From Nitrospirota bacterium (GTDB taxonomy: Bacteria > Nitrospirota > Thermodesulfovibrionia > Thermodesulfovibrionales > SM23-35): 64,000 bases of DNA. This document shows, piece after piece, positions 4,639-47,076 of this stretch. The DNA is taken from NCBI GenBank assembly GCA_040753955.1, contig JBFMDQ010000001.1, positions 44,668-108,667 on the forward strand. Reading direction: 5' to 3'. The position numbers and the translations under genes were made by a program. A model generated the notes under the pieces. It made no database searches, was not told the origin of the DNA, and worked only from the letters and a program-made list of their open reading frames with translations. Each line of letters opens with the position of its first letter. Position 1 is the first letter of the stretch.

Positions 4639-5522
4639 GAACCCTTTCCCTCGGCTATTCACCATGCCCCAATGATACTTTTATATTCTATGCCCTCGTC
4701 CGCGGGAAAATCGATACAGAGGATATAGGTTTCAAAGAGGCCCTGCTGGATGTTGAGACCCTTAATCAGATGGCTTTGTGCTCCGAACTCGATATTACAA
4801 AGATTTCATATCATGCCTTCGGCCATCTCCGTGAAGACTACTGCCTCCTCCGCTCTGGGAGCGCAATAGGCAGAGGCTGTGGGCCTCTGGTAGTTGCAAA
4901 GGAGGACTACACCGTGAAGGACTTAAGGGAGAAAAGGACAGCAATCCCTGGCAGGCTTACAACGGCAAATCTGCTTTTACAGCTATTTTCTTCAACCTTC
5001 AACCTTCAATCTTCAAATTCCCCCTTACCCCCCTTTACTAAAGGGGGGCAGGGGGGGATTATCGAAATGCCATTTAGTAAGATTATGGATGCAGTTGTGA
5101 AGGGAGATGTGGACGCAGGACTGATAATCCATGAAGGAAGATTTACCTATCCTTCTTACGGCTTGAAGAAAGTTTTAGACCTCGGCGAGTGGTGGGAGAA
5201 TGATACAGGGTTACCTGTACCCCTCGGCGGTGTACTTGCTAAGAGGAATCTGGGAAAAGACCTGATAAAGAGGGCCGATTCAGTTATAGGAAAGAGTATT
5301 GAGTATGCATTTAAACATAGGGATGAGCCAAAGTTCTATATAAAACAGCATTCCCAGGAACTCGAAGAGGAAGTGATAGAGCAGCATATAAATTTATATG
5401 TGAATGATTATTCTTTAGATATTGGTGAGGAAGGGTTATCAGCCGTTAGAGAGCTTCTCAGAAAGGCGGAAATGAGAGGAATTATCAAAGAATCGAGGAA
5501 TGAGTTTTTATGCGTTACGTAA
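4635..5522 (+). CDS. mqnD: 1,4-dihydroxy-6-naphthoate synthase (futalosine pathway)
   Basis: N-terminus RTLSLGYSPCPNDTFIFYAL..LDVETLN..DITKISYHAF is typical of MqnD (VitK2_biosynth family). ATG 4635 follows GGGAG. The gene carries a repeat-derived in-frame insertion at 4991-5060. Confidence 0.8.
   Translation: MRTLSLGYSPCPNDTFIFYALVRGKIDTEDIGFKEALLDVETLNQMALCSELDITKISYHAFGHLREDYCLLRSGSAIGRGCGPLVVAKEDYTVKDLREKRTAIPGRLTTANLLLQLFSSTFNLQSSNSPLPPFTKGGQGGIIEMPFSKIMDAVVKGDVDAGLIIHEGRFTYPSYGLKKVLDLGEWWENDTGLPVPLGGVLAKRNLGKDLIKRADSVIGKSIEYAFKHRDEPKFYIKQHSQELEEEVIEQHINLYVNDYSLDIGEEGLSAVRELLRKAEMRGIIKESRNEFLCVT
4991..5060. repeat. composite repeat inside mqnD: 4 x heptamer TTCAAYC (4991-5018) plus C-run/G-run hairpin element (5017-5060)
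   Basis: ttcaacc ttcaacc ttcaatc ttcaaat, followed by attcccccttacccccctttactaaaggggggcagggggggatt (imperfect palindrome). Read in frame as STFNLQSSNSPLPPFTKGGQGGI. Confidence 0.85.
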
Positions 5523-8149: not shown

Positions 8150-8854
8150 ATGAGGGTTTTGGCTACATTCGTTTCTACCTTTTTAGTCTTTATGTTTCCA
8201 GCCAAGGCACTGTCAGATATAATCGTCCACGACATTGTTGTTCCCATAGGCGAGGAGGTTATGCTCAGGGCTGAAATAAAAGGAAGATTCTTCAGCAAAG
8301 GTGGTGAGGTCGTAGAGTTCTTCGCCAATGGAAAACCTATTGGGAGAAGTCTTTCAGGCTTGGATGGTTTTGCCTTCAGACAGTTTATTCCGCCCAAAAC
8401 CGGCATATATCAAATAAAAGCGAGGGCAGGCAAGGACGAAGGTAAGGGATTACTCCTCTCCCTCAGGAGGGGCTCGAGGATTGTCTTTGTTGATGTAGAA
8501 GGTAGCCTGTTCGAGAGGTTTTCGAATAAGCCGAGGCACGGGAGCCAGAAAGTGATGAAAGATCTCCACAGAAGATTCCCAGTTGTCCTTCTCCAAACAG
8601 GGCTCCTGAACATAAAGTCCATAAAGGCATGGTTAAAGAAGAATGGATTCATAGAGTTACCCTTGATTCCCTGGAAACAGGGTGCGGTATTCAGTGAGTT
8701 TAATGAAAAGGGATTCAAAATCAAGGCAGTAATAGGAAGCAAAGATGTGATCGATTCTGCAAAGGAATACAAACCTCTTGCCCTTAGCTTCGAAGAGACA
8801 GAGGATGCAGTAGAAGTAAGGGATTGGGAGGAGATTAGAAAAAAGCTGAAGTGA
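8150..8854 (+). CDS. hypothetical secreted protein
   Basis: 234-aa ORF with a signal-peptide-like N-terminus (MRVLATFVSTFLVFMFPAKALS) and AAGGAAG upstream of the ATG. No family recognised. Confidence 0.55.
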   Translation: MRVLATFVSTFLVFMFPAKALSDIIVHDIVVPIGEEVMLRAEIKGRFFSKGGEVVEFFANGKPIGRSLSGLDGFAFRQFIPPKTGIYQIKARAGKDEGKGLLLSLRRGSRIVFVDVEGSLFERFSNKPRHGSQKVMKDLHRRFPVVLLQTGLLNIKSIKAWLKKNGFIELPLIPWKQGAVFSEFNEKGFKIKAVIGSKDVIDSAKEYKPLALSFEETEDAVEVRDWEEIRKKLK

Positions 8855-8930
8855 TTGACAGGACTACTGTTAAAGATGGATAATTGAATATGTCTCAGAG
8901 ATATAACTTTAAACTTTTCACTGTTGTTAC

Positions 8931-11056: not shown

Positions 11057-11083
11057 TAACCCCCTCATTCCCCCCCTACTTAG
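11057..11083. repeat. C-arm-only fragment of the C-run/G-run hairpin element
   Basis: taaccccctcattccccccctactta resembles the left arm of the elements at 5017, 27576 and 43894. No G-rich partner arm follows. Confidence 0.5.
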
Positions 11084-26319: not shown

Positions 26320-28688
26320 ACTCCTCGGGATCGAGTCGCAACGATCTTGTCATTGTTGAGTCACCTGCAAAGGCAAAGACCCTCCATAAGATACTCGGTA
26401 AGGGATTTGCAGTCAAGGCATCTATTGGTCATATAAAGGACCTTCCTGAGAAAGAGCTTGGGGTTGATGTGGAGAGTAACTTTAAGCCTCATTACGTTGT
26501 AATCCCTGGTAAAGAAAAAGTTATTAAGGAGCTTAAGAAGGCATCAAAAGAGGCTGATAAGATATTTCTTGCCCCCGACCCTGATAGGGAGGGAGAAGCA
26601 ATAGCATGGCATATTGCTTATGAAATCTCAAATATCATCCCGAAACAAGTTCGGGATCAAAATTTAAAAGGAAAGATACACAGGATTACCTTTAATGAAA
26701 TAACAGAGCGGGCTGTGCGAGAAGCAATAAAGAACCCTGGCAGGATAGATATGAACAAGGTCGAGGCCCAGCAGGCCCGGAGGATACTTGACAGGCTTGT
26801 CGGTTACGGACTCAGCCCCCTTCTATGGAAGAAGGTTAGGAAAGGCCTTAGCGCAGGGAGGGTACAGTCCGTTGCAGTAAAGCTGATTGTAGACAGAGAG
26901 CGAGAGATAAGGGCATTCAAACCCGAAGAATACTGGAGTATAAACGCAGAATTTGAAGGGTCTAAACCTCCCAGGTTCTGGGCAAGACTTTACAAGATAG
27001 ACTCCAGACTCCAGACTATAGGCTCCAGATTTTTGATACCCAATGAAAATACTGCAACGGCTATTGTTAATGACTTAAAAGACAGAGAGTTTGTACTGAG
27101 CAAAATAGAGCGCAAGCAGAGGAAGAGGATGCCTTATCCTCCCTTTATCACAAGCACTATACAGCAGGAAGCAGCAAGGAGACTGAGATTCCCGGCAAAA
27201 AAGACAATGATGATAGCACAGCAGCTCTACGAGGGAGTGGAACTTGCTGAAGAGGGTTCAGTGGGACTCATTACCTATATGAGAACAGACTCCTTCAGGG
27301 TTGCCCCTGATGCACAGGAGTGGGCGAGGGAATTCATCATGAGGGTTTATGGAAGAGATTACACACCTGAGAAACCTCCTGTTTATAAAACCAAAGGATC
27401 TGTACAGGATGCACATGAGGCGATAAGGCCGACATATCCTGAGAAAAGACCAGAGGATATAAAACAATTTCTTTCAAAAGACCAATATGCCCTTTATACG
27501 TTGATATGGAATCGGTTTATATCAAGCCAGATGGCACCAGCCCAGCTTGAACAAACGACCTTTACAATCAATACAAATCCCCCCTTACCCTCAAATAATC
27601 CCCCCACCCCCCCTTTAGTAAAGGGGGGCGAGGGGGGATTTGCCGAGTTCAGGGCATCAGGAACGGTAGTCCGTTTCGATGGCTTCATGGCCTTGTATAC
27701 AGAAGGAAGGGATGAGGCAGAAGAGGAAGAAGGACTGGCATTGCCTGCATTAAAAGAGGGGGAGACATTAACACTTCTAAATCTACAACCAAGACAGCAT
27801 TTCACACAGTCGTCACCACGTTATACGGAGGCGACACTCATTAAGGCCCTTGAGGAAAAAGGTATTGGTAGACCGAGCACCTATGCAACAATCCTCTCCA
27901 CCATCCAGGAGAGGAAATATGTCCATAAGACTGACGGCAAGTTTTCCCCCACAGAGCTTGGCATTGTTGTAAATGACTTTCTCGTTGAAAGATTCCCCGA
28001 ACTCATAGATGTGGATTTTACTGCAAAAATGGAAGATGAGCTTGACCGGATTGAAGACGGAAAGATAAGATGGGTAAAGGTTGTAAAGGATCTTTACAAC
28101 CCTTTCAGCCGTGACCTCACAGAGGCTATAAAAACTACAGGCAGGGTAAGACCAGAGGATATACCTACTGAAACCATATGCGAGGTGTGCGGCCTTCCCA
28201 TGGTCATAAGGTGGGGAAGACACGGAAGATTTCTGGCATGCTCTGGATTTCCAAAATGTAAAAATACAAAACCCATGGAAAGTCAGCAGTCAGCCGTCAG
28301 CAGTCAGCAGTCAAATGAGATATGTGATAAGTGTGGCTCACCTATGTTAATAAAGTCGGGGCGATATGGAAAATTCCTTGCCTGTTCAAGATATCCTGAG
28401 TGCAAAAATACAAGACCTCTGTCAACGGGTTTGAGATGTCCACAGGATGGAGGAGATATAGTAGAAAGGCATTCAAGAAAAGGGAAACCTTTCTGGAACT
28501 GTGGTAACTATCCAGCGTGCCAATTCGTTTTATGGAATAAACCTATACCCGGAAAATGTCTTCAGTGTGGTGCAGATTTCCTTCTTGAGAAAAGAGGTAA
28601 GGCAGGAAAGTTGATACATTTCTGCCATAATAAGAAATGCGGATACAAAGGGGAAGTAAAAGAGGAAGTGGTCGGCCATTTATTATAG
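26316..28688 (+). CDS. topA: DNA topoisomerase I
   Basis: Toprim LVIVESPAKAKT..DPDREGE, active-site Tyr region GLITYMRTDS, and four C-terminal Cys4 zinc ribbons. Carries two repeat-derived in-frame inserts (27576-27640, 28281-28315). Confidence 0.95.
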   Translation: MNSSGSSRNDLVIVESPAKAKTLHKILGKGFAVKASIGHIKDLPEKELGVDVESNFKPHYVVIPGKEKVIKELKKASKEADKIFLAPDPDREGEAIAWHIAYEISNIIPKQVRDQNLKGKIHRITFNEITERAVREAIKNPGRIDMNKVEAQQARRILDRLVGYGLSPLLWKKVRKGLSAGRVQSVAVKLIVDREREIRAFKPEEYWSINAEFEGSKPPRFWARLYKIDSRLQTIGSRFLIPNENTATAIVNDLKDREFVLSKIERKQRKRMPYPPFITSTIQQEAARRLRFPAKKTMMIAQQLYEGVELAEEGSVGLITYMRTDSFRVAPDAQEWAREFIMRVYGRDYTPEKPPVYKTKGSVQDAHEAIRPTYPEKRPEDIKQFLSKDQYALYTLIWNRFISSQMAPAQLEQTTFTINTNPPLPSNNPPTPPLVKGGEGGFAEFRASGTVVRFDGFMALYTEGRDEAEEEEGLALPALKEGETLTLLNLQPRQHFTQSSPRYTEATLIKALEEKGIGRPSTYATILSTIQERKYVHKTDGKFSPTELGIVVNDFLVERFPELIDVDFTAKMEDELDRIEDGKIRWVKVVKDLYNPFSRDLTEAIKTTGRVRPEDIPTETICEVCGLPMVIRWGRHGRFLACSGFPKCKNTKPMESQQSAVSSQQSNEICDKCGSPMLIKSGRYGKFLACSRYPECKNTRPLSTGLRCPQDGGDIVERHSRKGKPFWNCGNYPACQFVLWNKPIPGKCLQCGADFLLEKRGKAGKLIHFCHNKKCGYKGEVKEEVVGHLL
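27576..27640. repeat. C-run/G-run hairpin element inside topA (extra left arm)
   Basis: aaatccccccttaccc tcaaat aatcccccccaccccccctttagtaaaggggggcgaggggggatt. Read in frame as NPPLPSNNPPTPPLVKGGEGGF. Confidence 0.85.
28281..28315. repeat. heptamer tandem repeat inside topA (AGTCAGC x5)
   Basis: agtcagc agtcagc cgtcagc agtcagc agtcaaa. Read in frame as SQQSAVSSQQSN, between two zinc-ribbon modules. Confidence 0.85.
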
Positions 28689-29212
28689 GGATCGGTGGTG
28701 CCCATAGCAAGGTTGGAAAGACTACTGTTGCCTGCCAAATCCTTAAAAGACTTGGCGGATGGGGTGCTATAAAATACACCAAGACTTTATTCTATAGCTC
28801 TATAGTCGATAGCCCCGGGATATTGAGACAGAAAAATAAGGACACCAGCAGGCTCCTCGATGCCGGCACCCACGAAGTTCTCTGGGTTCAGTCACCGCCT
28901 GACTGCCTGAAAGAGATCCTTCAGATAGCCGTTGACAGGCTTTCACACTTGAAGGGAATCATCCTTGAAGGAAACAGTGCAATTGAGGTCCTAAGACCCG
29001 ATGCTGTAATATTTATATCTGGAAATAAGGAACTCAAGAGGAGTGCGGACGAAATCCTCAGAATAGCTGATGCTGTTATTTTCGATAAAGATCTCCCGTC
29101 AGGAACACCTGAGGGCGCTGAAAGATTTCGTAGCGATGACGTGGAAGGATATACAAATTTCATAACAGGACTTATGATTGAACGCAAAAACAAGAAAACG
29201 GCTCAAGGGTAA
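28637..29212 (+). CDS. MobB-like P-loop NTPase
   Basis: Walker A GIGGAHSKVGKTT. By eye it aligns with MobB landmarks (IKYTK vs IKHT, KDTSRLLDAG, GIILEGNS vs LILVEGFK, DDVEGYTNFI). ATG 28637 overlaps the topA end by 52 nt. The stop lies 3 nt before the RNA ligase ATG. Confidence 0.6.
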   Translation: MRIQRGSKRGSGRPFIIGIGGAHSKVGKTTVACQILKRLGGWGAIKYTKTLFYSSIVDSPGILRQKNKDTSRLLDAGTHEVLWVQSPPDCLKEILQIAVDRLSHLKGIILEGNSAIEVLRPDAVIFISGNKELKRSADEILRIADAVIFDKDLPSGTPEGAERFRSDDVEGYTNFITGLMIERKNKKTAQG

Positions 29213-42309: not shown

Positions 42310-43872
42310 ATGGGTAAGAAAATTACTATAGATCCAATTACCAGGATTGAAGGACACCTGAAGATTGAAGTAGAAATTGAAGATGGTAAGGTTAAGGATG
42401 CCTGGAGTAGTGGTACAATGGCTCGTGGATTTGAGGCCATGCTCATTGGGAAAGATCCAAGGGATGCCTCCTTTGTAACCAGTCGCTTCTGCGGGGTCTG
42501 CTATAGTGTGCACCAGATAACTTCCGCACGTGCTCTGGATGAAGCCTTTGGGGCTAAGGTTCCATGGGGAGGAACCCTCATCAGGAACCTGGTCATGGGT
42601 GCAGAGTATATCTATGACCATCTGATTCATTTTTACCAGTTGAGCGCCCTTGATTATATTGATATCATGGCCATCGCCAAATACAAAGGTAAGGATAAGG
42701 ATCTGTTGGCTGTTAAGGATAAGATTGTGGGCTTAGTAAAGGCAAAAGACACCTATCCGCTCACCCCAAGATATGAACCAGATGAATTTACTGTCAAAGA
42801 CTCAGATATAGTAATCACTGCAGTTAAGCATTATATTGATGCCCTGAAGATACATGCCCAGGCCAGGAACATGGGGGCTATATGGGGCGGCCGGACTCCT
42901 CATTATCAGAATATCGTAGTCGGAGGTGTCACCTCCTATCCCGATATAAATCAGGTAGCCCGTTTTCGCACTATGCTCGATGAGCAGGCCAGGTTTATCA
43001 ATGAGGTGTACATCCCGGACGTGTTGCTCTTCGGAACCGGTCCGCTATGGCCACTGGCCGAGCTTGGTGTAGGTGGAGGCCATTACAATTATCTCTCTTA
43101 TGGTGCCTTTGAGAAGGATCCGGCAGGTAAAGAGTTAGTCTTTCCTGCAGGCGTTATCGTGGGCCTGGATCCTGCGGATATCAAAGTTGAGCCATTTGAT
43201 CCCAAGAAGGTCACTGAATCGGTGAAATATGCCTGGTATAAGGAAAAGAAGCCAGTTCACCCTTATGATGGCGAGCAGGTATTTAATCTTGAAAAGAAGG
43301 AGGCATATTCCTTTGTCAAGGCCCCTCGCTACGACGGCAAATCAATGGAGGTTGGCCCACTTGCACGGATGCTTGTAGCCAAAAATCCTACTCTTATCGA
43401 TTTGGTCAAAAAGGGTGCAAAACCCGGTGCAGTTGCCCGCCATGCTGCCCGTGCAATTGAGACCAAGCTTGTAGTGGATGCCTGCTATAACTGGTTAGAC
43501 CAGCTACTCACCGAGATGACCAAACCGGGATTTAAGGTTCACGACACCGCACATTGGGATCCACCCGAAAGTGGCATGGGTGCTGGATTTTATGAAGCAC
43601 CTCGAGGTGCCTTAGGACACTGGGTCAAGATCAAAAACAAAAAGACCGAGAATTATCAGTGCGTGGTCCCTTCGACCTGGAATGCCTCGCCTCGCGACGA
43701 AAAAGGCGTCCGTGGGCAATACGAGGAAGCCCTCATTGGTGCTCCGGTACCAGATCCTGAAAACCCGATCAATGTAGTACGGATAATCCGCTCCTTTGAT
43801 CCCTGTCTGGCTTGCGCTATCCACATTATCGATCCGAAAACGAATGAAATCAGAAAATTCATTATCGAATAG
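42310..43872 (+). CDS. [NiFe] hydrogenase large subunit
   Basis: N-terminal RIEGHLKIEV, RFCGVC and C-terminal DPCLACAIH Ni-Fe ligand motifs. Both C-terminal ligands are Cys codons (tgt, tgc), so this is not a Sec-containing enzyme. Confidence 0.95.
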   Translation: MGKKITIDPITRIEGHLKIEVEIEDGKVKDAWSSGTMARGFEAMLIGKDPRDASFVTSRFCGVCYSVHQITSARALDEAFGAKVPWGGTLIRNLVMGAEYIYDHLIHFYQLSALDYIDIMAIAKYKGKDKDLLAVKDKIVGLVKAKDTYPLTPRYEPDEFTVKDSDIVITAVKHYIDALKIHAQARNMGAIWGGRTPHYQNIVVGGVTSYPDINQVARFRTMLDEQARFINEVYIPDVLLFGTGPLWPLAELGVGGGHYNYLSYGAFEKDPAGKELVFPAGVIVGLDPADIKVEPFDPKKVTESVKYAWYKEKKPVHPYDGEQVFNLEKKEAYSFVKAPRYDGKSMEVGPLARMLVAKNPTLIDLVKKGAKPGAVARHAARAIETKLVVDACYNWLDQLLTEMTKPGFKVHDTAHWDPPESGMGAGFYEAPRGALGHWVKIKNKKTENYQCVVPSTWNASPRDEKGVRGQYEEALIGAPVPDPENPINVVRIIRSFDPCLACAIHIIDPKTNEIRKFIIE

Positions 43873-44428
43873 CGACTCAAGAAAAATAAAGAAAATCCCC
43901 CCTTACCCCCCTTTAGCAAAGGGGGGGAGGGAGGATTATATATCTCAAAAAGAAGGGAAACTTCTTTCACTCCAAAAATTTGTCATCCTCGGAGTAGGTA
44001 ATCTTTTACTATCTGACGAAGGGGTTGGCGTTCACATAGCTAATGAACTTATGAAGATGGAACTGCCACCAGAGGTTTCGGTTGTTGAAGGTGGGACAAA
44101 TGGATTTCATCTCATCAATGTGATAACAGAAGCTGACAGACTCATCGTGATTGATGCTGTCAAAGGAGGTGGTGCTCCCGGTTCTATCTATCGTTTCGAC
44201 ATTAATGATGTCCGAAACTGCCCATCCGGTTTTAAGACATCAGTTCACCAGATCGGTATTTTAGAGGTCATAGATTTGTCAGGGCTGATCGGAAAGACCC
44301 CTCAAACCACAGTTATCGGTGTCGAACCTAAGTCTCTGGAGTTGGGAATGGAATTATCCCCCGAAATTAAGGCAAAGATTCCGAGGATTATTGAATTGAT
44401 ATTTGAAGAACTAAAAAAGTCAGGATAG
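43844..44428 (+). CDS. hydrogenase maturation endopeptidase (HyaD/HybD family)
   Basis: The conserved core starts near 43976 (KFVILGVGNLLLSDEGVGVHIANEL..VIDAV). No ATG/GTG/TTG lies between the repeat and the core. The nearest in-frame ATG is 43844, inside the large-subunit gene, and the ORF track starts at 43796. Confidence 0.8.
   Translation: MKSENSLSNSDSRKIKKIPPYPPLAKGGREDYISQKEGKLLSLQKFVILGVGNLLLSDEGVGVHIANELMKMELPPEVSVVEGGTNGFHLINVITEADRLIVIDAVKGGGAPGSIYRFDINDVRNCPSGFKTSVHQIGILEVIDLSGLIGKTPQTTVIGVEPKSLELGMELSPEIKAKIPRIIELIFEELKKSG
43894..43937. repeat. C-run/G-run hairpin element between the hydrogenase large subunit and protease genes
   Basis: aaatccccccttacccccctttagcaaagggggggagggaggatt. 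The frame of the downstream protease gene stays open through it (IPPYPPLAKGGRED). Confidence 0.85.
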
Positions 44429-44793: not shown

Positions 44794-47076
44794 ATGTCAA
44801 TATCTGACTTCATAGAATCCTTAAAAAAAGACAGGAGATTTAATCTCCAGGTTGCAGAACATAAATACATTCCTCCCATGAGGCCAGGATATGGGGAGCT
44901 TACTTTATTTGACAGGCTCAGAGATGTATTGAGAAGGCGAGGCATAGAGCTATTTTACAGCCACCAGGTCGAGGCTATTAATTTAATAAGGCAGGGAGAG
45001 AATGTCGTTGTTATGACCCCTACGGCAAGCGGTAAGAGCCTCATATATAACATTCCTGTGCTTGAATCCATCATCGAAAACCCTGAGTATAGGGCATTGT
45101 ATATATTCCCGTTAAAGGGACTTGAACAGGACCAGGTAAAAAACCTTAATGAGCTTTTTTATTCCGTGATGACACCCTCCCCTACTCCTCCCATTATTTA
45201 TAAACCCCCTCCCCGCTCAAAATCCCCCCTGCAATTTGCAGAAATCTACGATGGGGACACAACAGCCTACAGGAGAAAGAAGATAAGAGAGGAAATACCT
45301 AACGTTATTTTTACAAACCCTGATATGCTCCATCTTGCATTAAATCCCTTTCATAAAAAATGGGAAACCTTCTTCAAGAATTTGAGATATGTGGTTATTG
45401 ATGAGATACATACTTACAGGGGTGTATTTGGCTCAAATGTTGCCCATGTGATGAGGAGGCTGAGGAGAATATGTAAATACTGGGGTTCTAACCCCCAATT
45501 TATTGCAGCCTCTGCAACTATAGCCAATCCATCTCAACTTGCTGAAGAACTCATTGGATTACCTTTTAAGGTTGTGGCTCAAAGTGGGGCACCACAGGCA
45601 GGGAGACATTTTATATTTATTAATCCCATTGACAGCCCTTATACAGAAACGACAAGGCTTTTTATAAGATGCCTGAATGCAGGGCTCAGAACAATCGTCT
45701 TTACAAAGGCAAGAAAGATAACAGAGCTTATCTATTCATGGACAATGAACCAGGCACCTGAGCTTGAGGGCAGGATAAGCCCTTACCGCGCTGGTTTTCT
45801 TCCGAGAGAAAGGAGAGAGATAGAACAGAGATTATTCAGTGGAGAGCTCTTAGGTGTTGTATCAACAAGCGCACTTGAGCTCGGAATTGATATAGGAGGG
45901 CTTGACTGCTGTATACTCTGCGGTTATCCAGGCTCTGTGGCAAGCACCTGGCAAAGGGCAGGTCGTGTTGGAAGAGGTGGACAGGAATCAATGATTGTGA
46001 TGATTGCTATTCAGGATGCCCTTGACCAGTATTTCATGCGTCATCCTGAGGCATTCTTTGAAAAAAGTCATGAGGCAGCAGTCATAGACCCTGAAAATAG
46101 AAATATCCTTAAAAGACATATTCCATGTGCCTCTTCAGAGGTTTACCTGAGAGAATACGACGAGACATATGATGTAAAAAAGCTTATGCCTTTGATTGAT
46201 GAGCTTGTTAAAGAAGGGATTTTAAATCCTGGCAGGAAAGGAGACATATGGTTCTCCAGAAGAAGAATGCCCCACAGGGAGGTTGGTATCAGGGCGATCG
46301 GTGAGCCATTTGATATTATTGATGAATCAGGGAAGGCAATTGGGGAGCTAAGTGGTATAAGGGTTTTCAGGGATGCCTTTCCTGGGGCTATCTATCTCCA
46401 CAGGGGAAGGCAGTATCATGTTACAGAGCTTGATTTAGAAAGGAAAAGGGTGATATGCAGTGAGGTTGACGTAAATTATTACACCCAGGCATTGAGCAAA
46501 GAAGAGACAGAAGTAATAAAAGAGAAGGAGATGAAGAATTACAGGGGCCTTTCAGTTCGCTGGGGAACCCTTAAAACAACCCAGAAGATAACAGGCTATG
46601 AGAAAAAGAGGATCTTTGACAGGGTCAGGATTTCAAGACATGGCCTCGATATGCCTGATTGCATATTCGAGACAGAAGGACTCTGGATCAAAATAGATAA
46701 GACAATAAAATCTTTTGTCGAATCAAAAGGTTTTGATCTTGCAGGGACCCTCCATGCTGTTGAGCATACTGTAATAGCATGTATACCACTATTTGCCCTC
46801 TGTGACAGAGGAGACATTGGCGGATTGAGTTATACCTTTTATCCTGAATTTAAACAACCTGCAATATTCATTTATGATGGATACGAAGGTGGGATAGGGC
46901 TAACAAAGAGGGCGACTGAGGTTATCGGGGATTTGCTGATGGCAACCCTGAAGGTCATTGATGAATGTCCTTGCGAAGAAGGTTGCCCTTCCTGTGTGCA
47001 GGACCCACAGTGTGGTTCAGGCAACCAGCCACTGGATAAAGAAGGGGCAAAAAATCTACTTAAAAGATGGCTCTAA
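44794..47076 (+). CDS. DEAD/DEAH-box helicase with C-terminal DUF1998/MrfA Zn-binding domain (YprA/MrfA-like)
   Basis: Motif I TPTASGKS, motif II VIDEIH, motif VI QRAGRVGRG, and a C-terminal CPCEEGCPSCVQDPQCGSGN cysteine cluster. Contains a C-rich insert at 45171-45232. Confidence 0.85.
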   Translation: MSISDFIESLKKDRRFNLQVAEHKYIPPMRPGYGELTLFDRLRDVLRRRGIELFYSHQVEAINLIRQGENVVVMTPTASGKSLIYNIPVLESIIENPEYRALYIFPLKGLEQDQVKNLNELFYSVMTPSPTPPIIYKPPPRSKSPLQFAEIYDGDTTAYRRKKIREEIPNVIFTNPDMLHLALNPFHKKWETFFKNLRYVVIDEIHTYRGVFGSNVAHVMRRLRRICKYWGSNPQFIAASATIANPSQLAEELIGLPFKVVAQSGAPQAGRHFIFINPIDSPYTETTRLFIRCLNAGLRTIVFTKARKITELIYSWTMNQAPELEGRISPYRAGFLPRERREIEQRLFSGELLGVVSTSALELGIDIGGLDCCILCGYPGSVASTWQRAGRVGRGGQESMIVMIAIQDALDQYFMRHPEAFFEKSHEAAVIDPENRNILKRHIPCASSEVYLREYDETYDVKKLMPLIDELVKEGILNPGRKGDIWFSRRRMPHREVGIRAIGEPFDIIDESGKAIGELSGIRVFRDAFPGAIYLHRGRQYHVTELDLERKRVICSEVDVNYYTQALSKEETEVIKEKEMKNYRGLSVRWGTLKTTQKITGYEKKRIFDRVRISRHGLDMPDCIFETEGLWIKIDKTIKSFVESKGFDLAGTLHAVEHTVIACIPLFALCDRGDIGGLSYTFYPEFKQPAIFIYDGYEGGIGLTKRATEVIGDLLMATLKVIDECPCEEGCPSCVQDPQCGSGNQPLDKEGAKNLLKRWL
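45171..45232. repeat. C-rich (C-arm-like) repeat segment inside the helicase gene
   Basis: gacaccctcccctactcctcccattatttataaaccccctccccgctcaaaatcccccctgc. Read as TPSPTPPIIYKPPPRSKSPLQ, between helicase motifs Ia and Ib. No G-rich partner arm. Confidence 0.55.

Follow-up and report, generated by a model that had tools for sequence, protein, structure and literature searches.

A short palindromic repeat lies in frame inside the DNA topoisomerase I gene (topA) of a Nitrospirota bacterium (SM23-35), on a 64-kb stretch of DNA (assembly GCA_040753955.1, contig JBFMDQ010000001.1, positions 44,668 to 108,667) that is called the window here. The insert, a hairpin with runs of six C and six G (the C6/G6 hairpin), is a repeat element that is very probably translated and tolerated at a permissive turn of the enzyme; the order of events that produced the present allele can be proposed with lower confidence.

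The variable loop formed by residues N419-A443 of the protein reads NTNPPLPSNNPPTPPLVKGGEGGFA (25 residues) and is followed by E. Its DNA combines a truncated outer left arm, a spacer and a complete inner hairpin (Table 1), the latter translating as NPPTPPLVKGGEGG(F). The arms of the inner hairpin (27597-27616 and 27621-27640) measure 20 nucleotides (nt) each, are 85% complementary and are separated by a 4-nt gap. The predicted RNA fold of positions 27560-27660 reaches -42.1 kcal/mol (z = -3.85), a value equalled by 0 of 200 shuffles, and the hairpin obtains a terminator-like score on the antisense strand. Predicted peptides across the insert would cover LVKGGEGGFAEFR and PPLVKGGEGGFAEFR, and the protein sequence joined without the loop would read ..FTIESSGRPYEF... 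An earlier note on this DNA had given the sequence at 27576-27640, which matches the window exactly and falls inside a single open reading frame (ORF). The 65 nt quoted there as the length of an in-frame insert had to be corrected, 65 being no multiple of 3: the real excess is 54 nt (18 codons) over an orthologue with the short loop ESSGRPY, or 20 codons over the canonical five-residue turn.

The same note had read the insert as an in-frame copy of a dispersed hairpin repeat, and the three copies found in the window, together with the uninterrupted ORF, bear this out. Two further sites, 5028-5048 and 43906-43926, match the 21-nt core CCCCCCTTTAGTAAAGGGGGG with no more than two mismatches, for a chance expectation of 0.00 in the window (100 shuffles), and both of these copies have outer arms AAT(T)C5-6..G6-7ATT, as the topA copy does. 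The element consensus is AATC6-N1-3-C6-TTTANNAAA-G6-N2-3-G6ATT, about 44 nt long. It is open, with no stop, in four of six frames, giving PPLVKGG, PPFSKGG, PPFTKGG and PPLLKGG, and the same peptides are seen in host proteins. Codon choice differs strongly between the inserts and the remainder of these genes: CCC accounts for 71% of the Pro codons inside against 16% outside, and GGG for 62% of the Gly codons against 19%.

Going further, one genome per species was scanned with the degenerate core CCCCCCTTTANNAAAGGGGGG. Among the matches listed, the core occurs in more than 120 stretches of species-representative genomes from many phyla; by the names in the records, the hosts include Nitrospirota, Thermodesulfobacteriota and other 'delta' lineages, Nitrospinota, Planctomycetota, Acidobacteriota, Ignavibacteriae and several Proteobacteria. 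The loci fetched (1.08 Mb) hold 237 core-like sites. An outer arm, AATC(n) or G(n)ATT, accompanies 110 of the 132 core matches of loci L003-L122, even though the arm was absent from the search pattern; both arms are present on only 26 and one arm on 84, so the commonest form is an asymmetric 'three-quarter' element, AATC6-N3-C6TTTANNAAAG6. The element preserves its nucleotide sequence: the inner hairpin of the window is 42/44 identical to that of locus L129, while the dS of the genes is about 1. This may mean that the copies arose recently, that the genomic family homogenises them, or that the hairpin itself is under constraint.

The core was also found in 40 stretches of viral contigs, and phages could be vehicles of its spread across phyla. 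One virus-classified contig, L247 (IMG/VR 3300035670_001258), contains at least 12 copies; at positions 2240-2480 it bears an intergenic array of five cores with a spacing of about 51 nt, alternating with a second hairpin, GGTGGCGGCGAAGCCGCC.

Table 1. Coordinates of topA, of the parts of its insert and of related features in the window.
Feature	Position	Strand	Basis or remarks
topA, type IA DNA topoisomerase I, 790 aa	26316..28688	+	uninterrupted ORF, argG-dprA-topA context
Hypervariable TopA loop, residues N419-A443	27570..27644	+	PDB alignments, 120 orthologues, distant TopAs
Truncated outer left arm AAATCCCCCCTTACCC	27575..27590	+	one base off the start of the L125/L133 single element
Spacer TCAAAT	27591..27596	+	aligns with ACTGAT (L134) and ACCAAT (L127)
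Complete inner C6/G6 hairpin AATCCCCCCACCCCCCCTTTAGTAAAGGGGGGCGAGGGGGGATT, 44 nt	27597..27640	+	inverted repeat and fold
Second full copy, intergenic	5018..5062		stops 5 nt short of ATG at 5068
Third full copy, intergenic	43894..43939		22 nt after the stop codon that ends ORF 42310..43872; minus strand with a terminator-like score
Pro-rich in-frame insert SVMTPSPTPPIIYKPPPRSKSPLQ in MrfA/YprA-like helicase (ORF 44794..47076)	45163..45234	+	alignment to YprA

The host gene has every appearance of an intact one. topA is normally essential, and the window copy encodes the Toprim, Topoisom_bac and three Zn_ribbon_Top1 domains (Pfam, E from 1e-21 to 2.5e-124) as well as all the motifs looked for, VESPAKA14, DPDREGE88 and ITYMRTDS319, the last with the catalytic Tyr motif (residue 319). 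Solved chains of bacterial topoisomerase I match the protein at E = 6e-169. Outside the loop, the ratio of nonsynonymous to synonymous divergence (dN/dS) is 0.19, 0.15, 0.13 and 0.13 against four orthologues, and 0.16 between two closely related alleles with a filled and an empty loop (L130 and L131, described below); topA outside the loop is thus under purifying selection whether the loop is filled or empty. The gene order argG-dprA-topA is kept in 11 of the 11 DNA loci fetched, and the topA copies of these loci are therefore orthologues.

On the protein, the insert faces a gap in HMMER alignments to three solved topoisomerases: between TTLTVG416 and G418DFRLKARG in Escherichia coli, between VLRTK388 and 391KYRFKG in T. 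maritima, and between 431 and 439 in S. mutans. The site lies within the E. coli 30-kDa domain II+III fragment 1CY9 and, judging from the E. coli domain boundaries, in what we take to be the latter half of domain II, which forms the arch of the torus. TopAs of other phyla (44-55% identity) have a five-residue turn at this place, ..DIxAGDYLFRATG... The flanks of the insert are thus contiguous or nearly so in other TopAs, as had been supposed in the earlier note, and alignment to the E. coli and Thermotoga structures, proposed there, puts the insert on a tight beta-turn. Conservation of the segment in distant TopA proteins, named there as a refutation, was not found, these proteins having the tight turn.

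The variation of this loop was followed in the 120 best homologues, all Nitrospirota or Thermodesulfovibrionales, at 71-93% identity. These orthologues align almost free of gaps outside the loop, which itself ranges from 7 to 45 residues. A C6/G6 hairpin of the PPLxKGG type (class A) occupies the loop in 27 of the 120, a class defined by regular expression that includes two deletion remnants, P0049 and P0086. A second strong hairpin, ACCCCCCTCTATCCCCCC..GGGGGGAATTAAAGGGGGG with the peptide TPLYPPLPRGELKGG (class B), is found in nine, and a weaker palindrome, AGCTTGCAAGCTGGCCAGCC.. with the peptide SLQAGQPVSL (class C), in 19. Other long loops, mostly non-palindromic, account for 47, and short loops such as ESSGRPY, ETNDRLY and ESRERPY for the remaining 18. 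The strong hairpins of types A and B in orthologous alleles fold with z from -4.5 to -8. The motif PP[LF]xKGG appears at the loop and nowhere else in the 120 TopAs.

The loop classes are polyphyletic and intermingle on a neighbour-joining tree computed with the loop removed; the insert is not private to the genome of the window, related inserts being patchily spread among TopAs of 71-78% identity in the order. Whatever the class, the reading frame is preserved: the loop is in frame and stop-free in 120 of 120 orthologues, in 27 of 27 DNA loci of the order and across at least five unrelated insert classes. Deletion remnants of the loop, such as DADGGFA, EAGNPPIPPGGEEGFA and INTTPLSYEL, are in frame as well. 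That the frame is kept without stops in all alleles argues for actual translation of the insert, since such care would be needless if the segment were spliced out or bypassed; the purifying selection on these genes points the same way. The choice between tolerance and removal raised in the earlier note thus falls on the side of tolerance.

Two comparisons between close relatives show that the loop has turned over recently. The closest relative, L001 (a metagenome-assembled genome, or MAG, of Thermodesulfovibrionales), is syntenic with the window over 22 kb, and its topA is 96% identical in nucleotides; its loop is of class B, that of the window of class A. In a 7-kb alignment of the two, 28 of 218 substitutions fall within 27540-27659, with background divergence resumed at most 60 nt away on either side. 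A further difference lies in the gap between argG and dprA, genes that are adjacent in the window: L001 carries there (8760-8905) an AT-rich inverted-repeat insert of about 160 nt (AATAACCA...TGGTTATT), probably an unrelated element resembling a miniature inverted-repeat transposable element (MITE). The second comparison concerns two metagenomic alleles, L130 and L131 (samples ERZ27256988 and ERZ27256843), which are 98.8% identical and do not differ at all in 1.2 kb upstream. The difference between them is confined to the loop: where L130 has 54 nt (GCAGGT, the element and TGCA), L131 has 18 unrelated nt (ACTAACGACAGACTTTAT). Another filled/empty comparison was sought for the 43894 copy by way of the adjoining helicase gene, the nearest homologue of which is 87% identical and stands on a 5.7-kb contig.

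The window allele has what the earlier note described as one and a half left arms, with slippage or a second partial insertion as the proposed causes. The extra left segment recurs, with a homologous junction, in distant long alleles: as AATACAACTCCTTCTTTATCC-ACTGAT- in L134 (P0005 class) and as AATCTCCCCACCCCACCAAT- in L127 (P0024). Both also keep an extra right part, GAAAAAGGTGAGGGGGGAGCAATT..., which is predicted to fold back onto the extra left segment and so enclose the inner hairpin; such pairing is the signature of one element inside another. The outer left arm of the window is unusually intact, agreeing at all but one base with the single element of L125/L133. The window allele lacks the outer right arm and terminates like the short alleles, ..GGATTTGCC/GAG, and it therefore appears to derive from a nested allele by deletion or recombination. 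Of the two proposed causes, insertion is supported by the segment that L134 and L127 share, and slippage alone becomes less likely.

Inserts of this kind are not confined to topA. About 17% of the core-like sites (40 of 237) are flanked on each side by 80 or more codons of open frame. Hosts of an in-frame core confirmed by Pfam are MetRS, CobQ, KdsB, PurL (in two genomes), an Eco57I-like methylase, a radical SAM protein and a GH3 enzyme, from loci of various phyla (L109, L094, L074, L114, L019, L078, L004 and L018), always with the peptide PP[L/F]xKGG; in MetRS, the Pfam match to the catalytic domain is split into two stretches. The window itself provides a further case in an MrfA/YprA-like helicase, whose Pro-rich insert has mostly gaps opposite it when aligned with B. 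subtilis YprA (6znp). In the 120 helicase homologues examined, this place is a hypervariable loop, the second after that of TopA, and it is filled with hairpin-derived peptides of several families, such as PPFAKGGRG, NPPIPPLAKRGEGE, SPHPPFAKGGRG, PSPLVGEGKGEG and PRPPLNLRGGEGG; the window insert resembles what would remain of the PSPLxGEGKGEG type after loss of its centre. The presence of in-frame elements in unrelated enzymes and in the helicase weakens a functional reading specific to topA, and a model of frequent arrival plus permissive loops is favoured. Targeting specific to TopA was down-weighted as a candidate explanation, given that the helicase and the enzymes of other phyla behave alike.

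We propose that, within the domain II arch of topoisomerase I, a beta-hairpin tip has taken up a short, non-coding palindromic repeat in frame. Since four of the six frames of the element are free of stops, the ribosome would read through it as a Pro/Gly-rich PP[L/F]xKGG segment, and the enzyme would gain a flexible excrescence of about 20 residues on a turn that seems to tolerate almost any length. In the lineage of the window, an older outer copy may have been interrupted by a second, inner copy, the outer right arm being lost later. More broadly, this turn would be one of several permissive loops in the housekeeping proteins of the lineage, which would see several hairpin families repeatedly gained, duplicated, decayed, deleted and exchanged between strains. 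Candidates for the inserting or exchanging agent are a hairpin-specific transposase acting in trans, and exchange with other copies or alleles through recombination or gene conversion.

A bolder version can be advanced only tentatively, and we would not bet on it: the C6/G6 hairpin would be an undescribed, cross-phylum and 'coding-compatible' micro-element that actively colonises permissive turns of housekeeping enzymes (TopA, MetRS, PurL, CobQ, KdsB, MrfA-like helicase) and replaces its target without duplication. Its arrival would be so recent that strains 98.8% identical still differ in it, with phage-like contigs as possible carriers. If true, the micro-element would be a general engine of loop innovation in the proteins of free-living bacteria.

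Several points weigh against the account of a translated and tolerated repeat that has been inserted at this turn. The sole near-isogenic filled/empty pair (L130 and L131) shows no target-site duplication and no clean insertion signature at the loop, and its exchange of 54 for 18 nt fits recombinational allele replacement at least as well as transposition. Similarly, the patchy classes could reflect an old polymorphism shuffled by recombination and not repeated insertion. Gene callers report intact ORFs only, so that frameshifted alleles would be under-sampled among the orthologues. The exact window junction CCCCCCTTACCCTCAAATAATCCCCCC had no match in the metagenomes of the Joint Genome Institute (JGI). 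As for a second topA copy, which the earlier note had thought might matter, no further topA-like sequence was found within the 64-kb window, which was the DNA searched. Finally, the AlphaFold2 model built with 25 close homologues aligned (mean predicted local distance difference test, pLDDT, 45.8; predicted template modelling score, pTM, 0.24) was unusable for placement; because the model is so poor, the loop is presumed to be exposed at the surface from its alignment to solved structures and its tolerance of length.

The first of these points lead to the possibility that no new insertion took place in this lineage, and that an old balanced or neutral loop polymorphism of the order was moved between strains by homologous recombination, while gene conversion from other genomic copies held the hairpin sequence uniform. 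The junctions of filled alleles are indeed the same in distant backgrounds, E[A/T]G-N..GGF-[A/T]E, and the filled/empty pair is a replacement without target duplication; the window and L001 diverge only over some 100 nt on and near the loop, and the window allele looks chimeric, its left side being like the L125/L134 type and its right side like the L129/L130 type. However, at least four classes would still each have needed an original insertion at this one turn, and nested and partially duplicated copies denote activity of the element itself at the site. We regard this history as a serious but rather improbable one; it concerns the spread of alleles and not the identity of the insert, and as such is compatible with the explanation preferred here. 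Another proposal is that the topA hairpin is selected for a function of its own, as a supercoiling-sensitive cruciform or an RNA hairpin or attenuator, either of them tuning topA expression, or as a Pro/Gly loop that modulates the enzyme or shields it against an inhibitor. Its nucleotides are far more conserved than the synonymous sites of the host gene, PP[LF]xKGG is restricted to the loop in the 120 TopAs, and the antisense strand scores as a terminator, but the consensus is common to intergenic copies across phyla, and conservation therefore need not mean selection at topA. We consider such a function unlikely, and we similarly give little credence to its corollary that repeated occupation of the turn by different strong hairpins (types A and B) in many lineages reflects selection beyond mere permissiveness: 18 of the 120 orthologues have short non-hairpin loops, many others have decayed or non-palindromic inserts under equal purifying selection, and the elements found in frame in unrelated enzymes and in the window helicase indicate a general process independent of the gene.

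The remaining explanations call the protein product or the gene itself into question. It would be extremely improbable for the insert to be removed or skipped, as a tiny intron, a ribosomal bypass or a protein-splicing element. A strong GC hairpin inside an essential gene invites the thought, the more so as bypass elements are also short mobile hairpins, with one classic case in a topoisomerase subunit gene; yet every allele is in frame without stops, partial deletion remnants included, and a search of Rfam with 27300-27900 (E ≤ 10) returned generic hairpins only, none near threshold (best 22 bits against a gathering score of 77). Inteins have at least about 130 residues, an N-terminal Cys or Ser, a C-terminal His-Asn and a downstream nucleophile, and even the shortest mini-inteins are some fivefold longer than the present loop. 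With 25 residues (NTNPPLPSNNPPTPPLVKGGEGGFA, then E) that start with N and end with A, and with neither an intein nucleophile nor His-Asn features, the loop is too small and featureless, and an intein was ruled out. The small size, the constant frame and the missing RNA-family match likewise led us to reject a self-splicing intron or described structured RNA, and the in-frame, stop-free state of the insert in all alleles a programmed translational bypass element. There is also a very small chance that this topA copy was created by faulty assembly, or that it is a pseudogene in decay, with another topA elsewhere in the genome as a backup. Palindromes and homopolymer runs are prone to assembly error, the window covers 64 kb only and its exact junction is absent from the JGI metagenomes. 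Against an artefact stand equivalent inserts in dozens of independent assemblies and the identity at the site of L001 and L002, an NCBI MAG and an independent Logan assembly; a pseudogene is contradicted by the intact ORF, by a dN/dS of 0.19 relative to a relative with a dS of 0.09, by the dprA-topA position conserved in all relatives, and by the lack of any other topA-like sequence in the window.

Some further features of the window adjoin the element or the gene. A lone left-arm-like sequence, AACCCCCTCATTCCCCCCC, stands without a right arm in the intergenic DNA at 11060-11076. Four tandem CTTCAAC heptamers (4990-5017) lie directly 5' of the element copy at 5018-5062, and heptamer arrays also adjoin the element in the Nitrospirota loci L008, L013 and L015; the association is not significant, with 4 of 201 sites against 2.1 expected at random positions. 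Downstream of topA, a conserved ORF of 191 residues (28637-29212) overlaps the 3' end of the gene by 52 nt. It has a P-loop-like GIGGAHSKVGKTT and no Pfam match, and it is followed by a gene for a Pab1020-type RNA ligase, an arrangement that recurs in several relatives.

Filled, nested, decayed, deleted and empty alleles at one structurally defined turn of a normally essential enzyme constitute a natural test series. Such a series would allow tests of the amount of foreign Pro/Gly sequence that the arch of a type IA topoisomerase can accept, of how small hairpin repeats enter and leave coding DNA, and of whether inserts serve as raw material for new protein loops. On a practical level, annotation and alignment pipelines will meet segments of the PPLxKGG type in many MAG proteins and should flag them as repeat-derived.

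Literature searches, including AATCCCCCC and six insert peptides, returned no description of the element family, which is weak negative evidence, and several known systems bear comparison. T4 gene 60 and the mitochondrial 'byps' of Magnusiomyces contain short, GC-rich mobile hairpins in essential coding sequences; these bypass elements disrupt the reading frame or bring in stops, and translation skips them, whereas the frame is always kept in the element-bearing topA alleles. The small dispersed repeats of cyanobacteria, reportedly described by Elhai et al. in 2008, are said to be hairpins of 21-27 nt, self-nested and embedded in tandem heptamers. They resemble the present element in small size, hairpin shape and nesting, and the 5018 copy and three Nitrospirota loci do abut heptamer arrays; they differ in sequence and host group, and the heptamers show no enrichment here.

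Repetitive extragenic palindromic (REP) sequences and their REPIN derivatives, mobilised by RAYT transposases (PMC3116915), are similarly short, abundant and hairpin-forming, often placed beside gene ends, with nested or clustered copies. However, REPs seldom overlap coding regions, compared with about 17% of element cores in long open frames; REPINs are inverted REP doublets, and REP sequences are specific to lineages, unlike the cross-phylum consensus of the element. Aklujkar et al. (PMC2996986, PMC2700814) found 'multicopy nucleotide sequences' inside genes of Geobacter. Their families appear to differ in sequence from the element, the strings AATCCCCC, CCCCCCTTT and GGGGGGATT being absent from the supplements of these papers, and neither structural placement nor allele turnover is described there. 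MITEs differ from the element in its lack of target-site duplication, as seen between L130 and L131.

The closest parallel is offered by the Rickettsia palindromic elements (RPEs), which lie in frame in many unrelated genes at positions compatible with the protein fold (Ogata et al. 2000; PMC10969869). RPEs measure about 100-150 bp and are confined to Rickettsia, and a recent review of MITEs explicitly leaves open whether in-gene insertion of the RPE kind happens elsewhere (PMC10969869). Both systems consist of dispersed palindromes that have no gene of their own and stand in frame in unrelated housekeeping genes for which insert-free orthologues exist. The present element is nevertheless shorter (about 44 nt), with C6/G6 runs and a Pro/Gly peptide, and it shares no similarity in sequence with RPEs; free-living and mostly anaerobic bacteria of many phyla carry its core, as do viral contigs, and one site shows turnover of several classes together with nesting. 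Failing the RPE definition on size, sequence and host, the element therefore works like an RPE without being one. The comparison supports viewing it as a further case of in-frame palindromic repeats tolerated in essential genes, by which 'selfish DNA inside protein-coding genes' would extend past the obligate intracellular Rickettsia to free-living Nitrospirota and other phyla.

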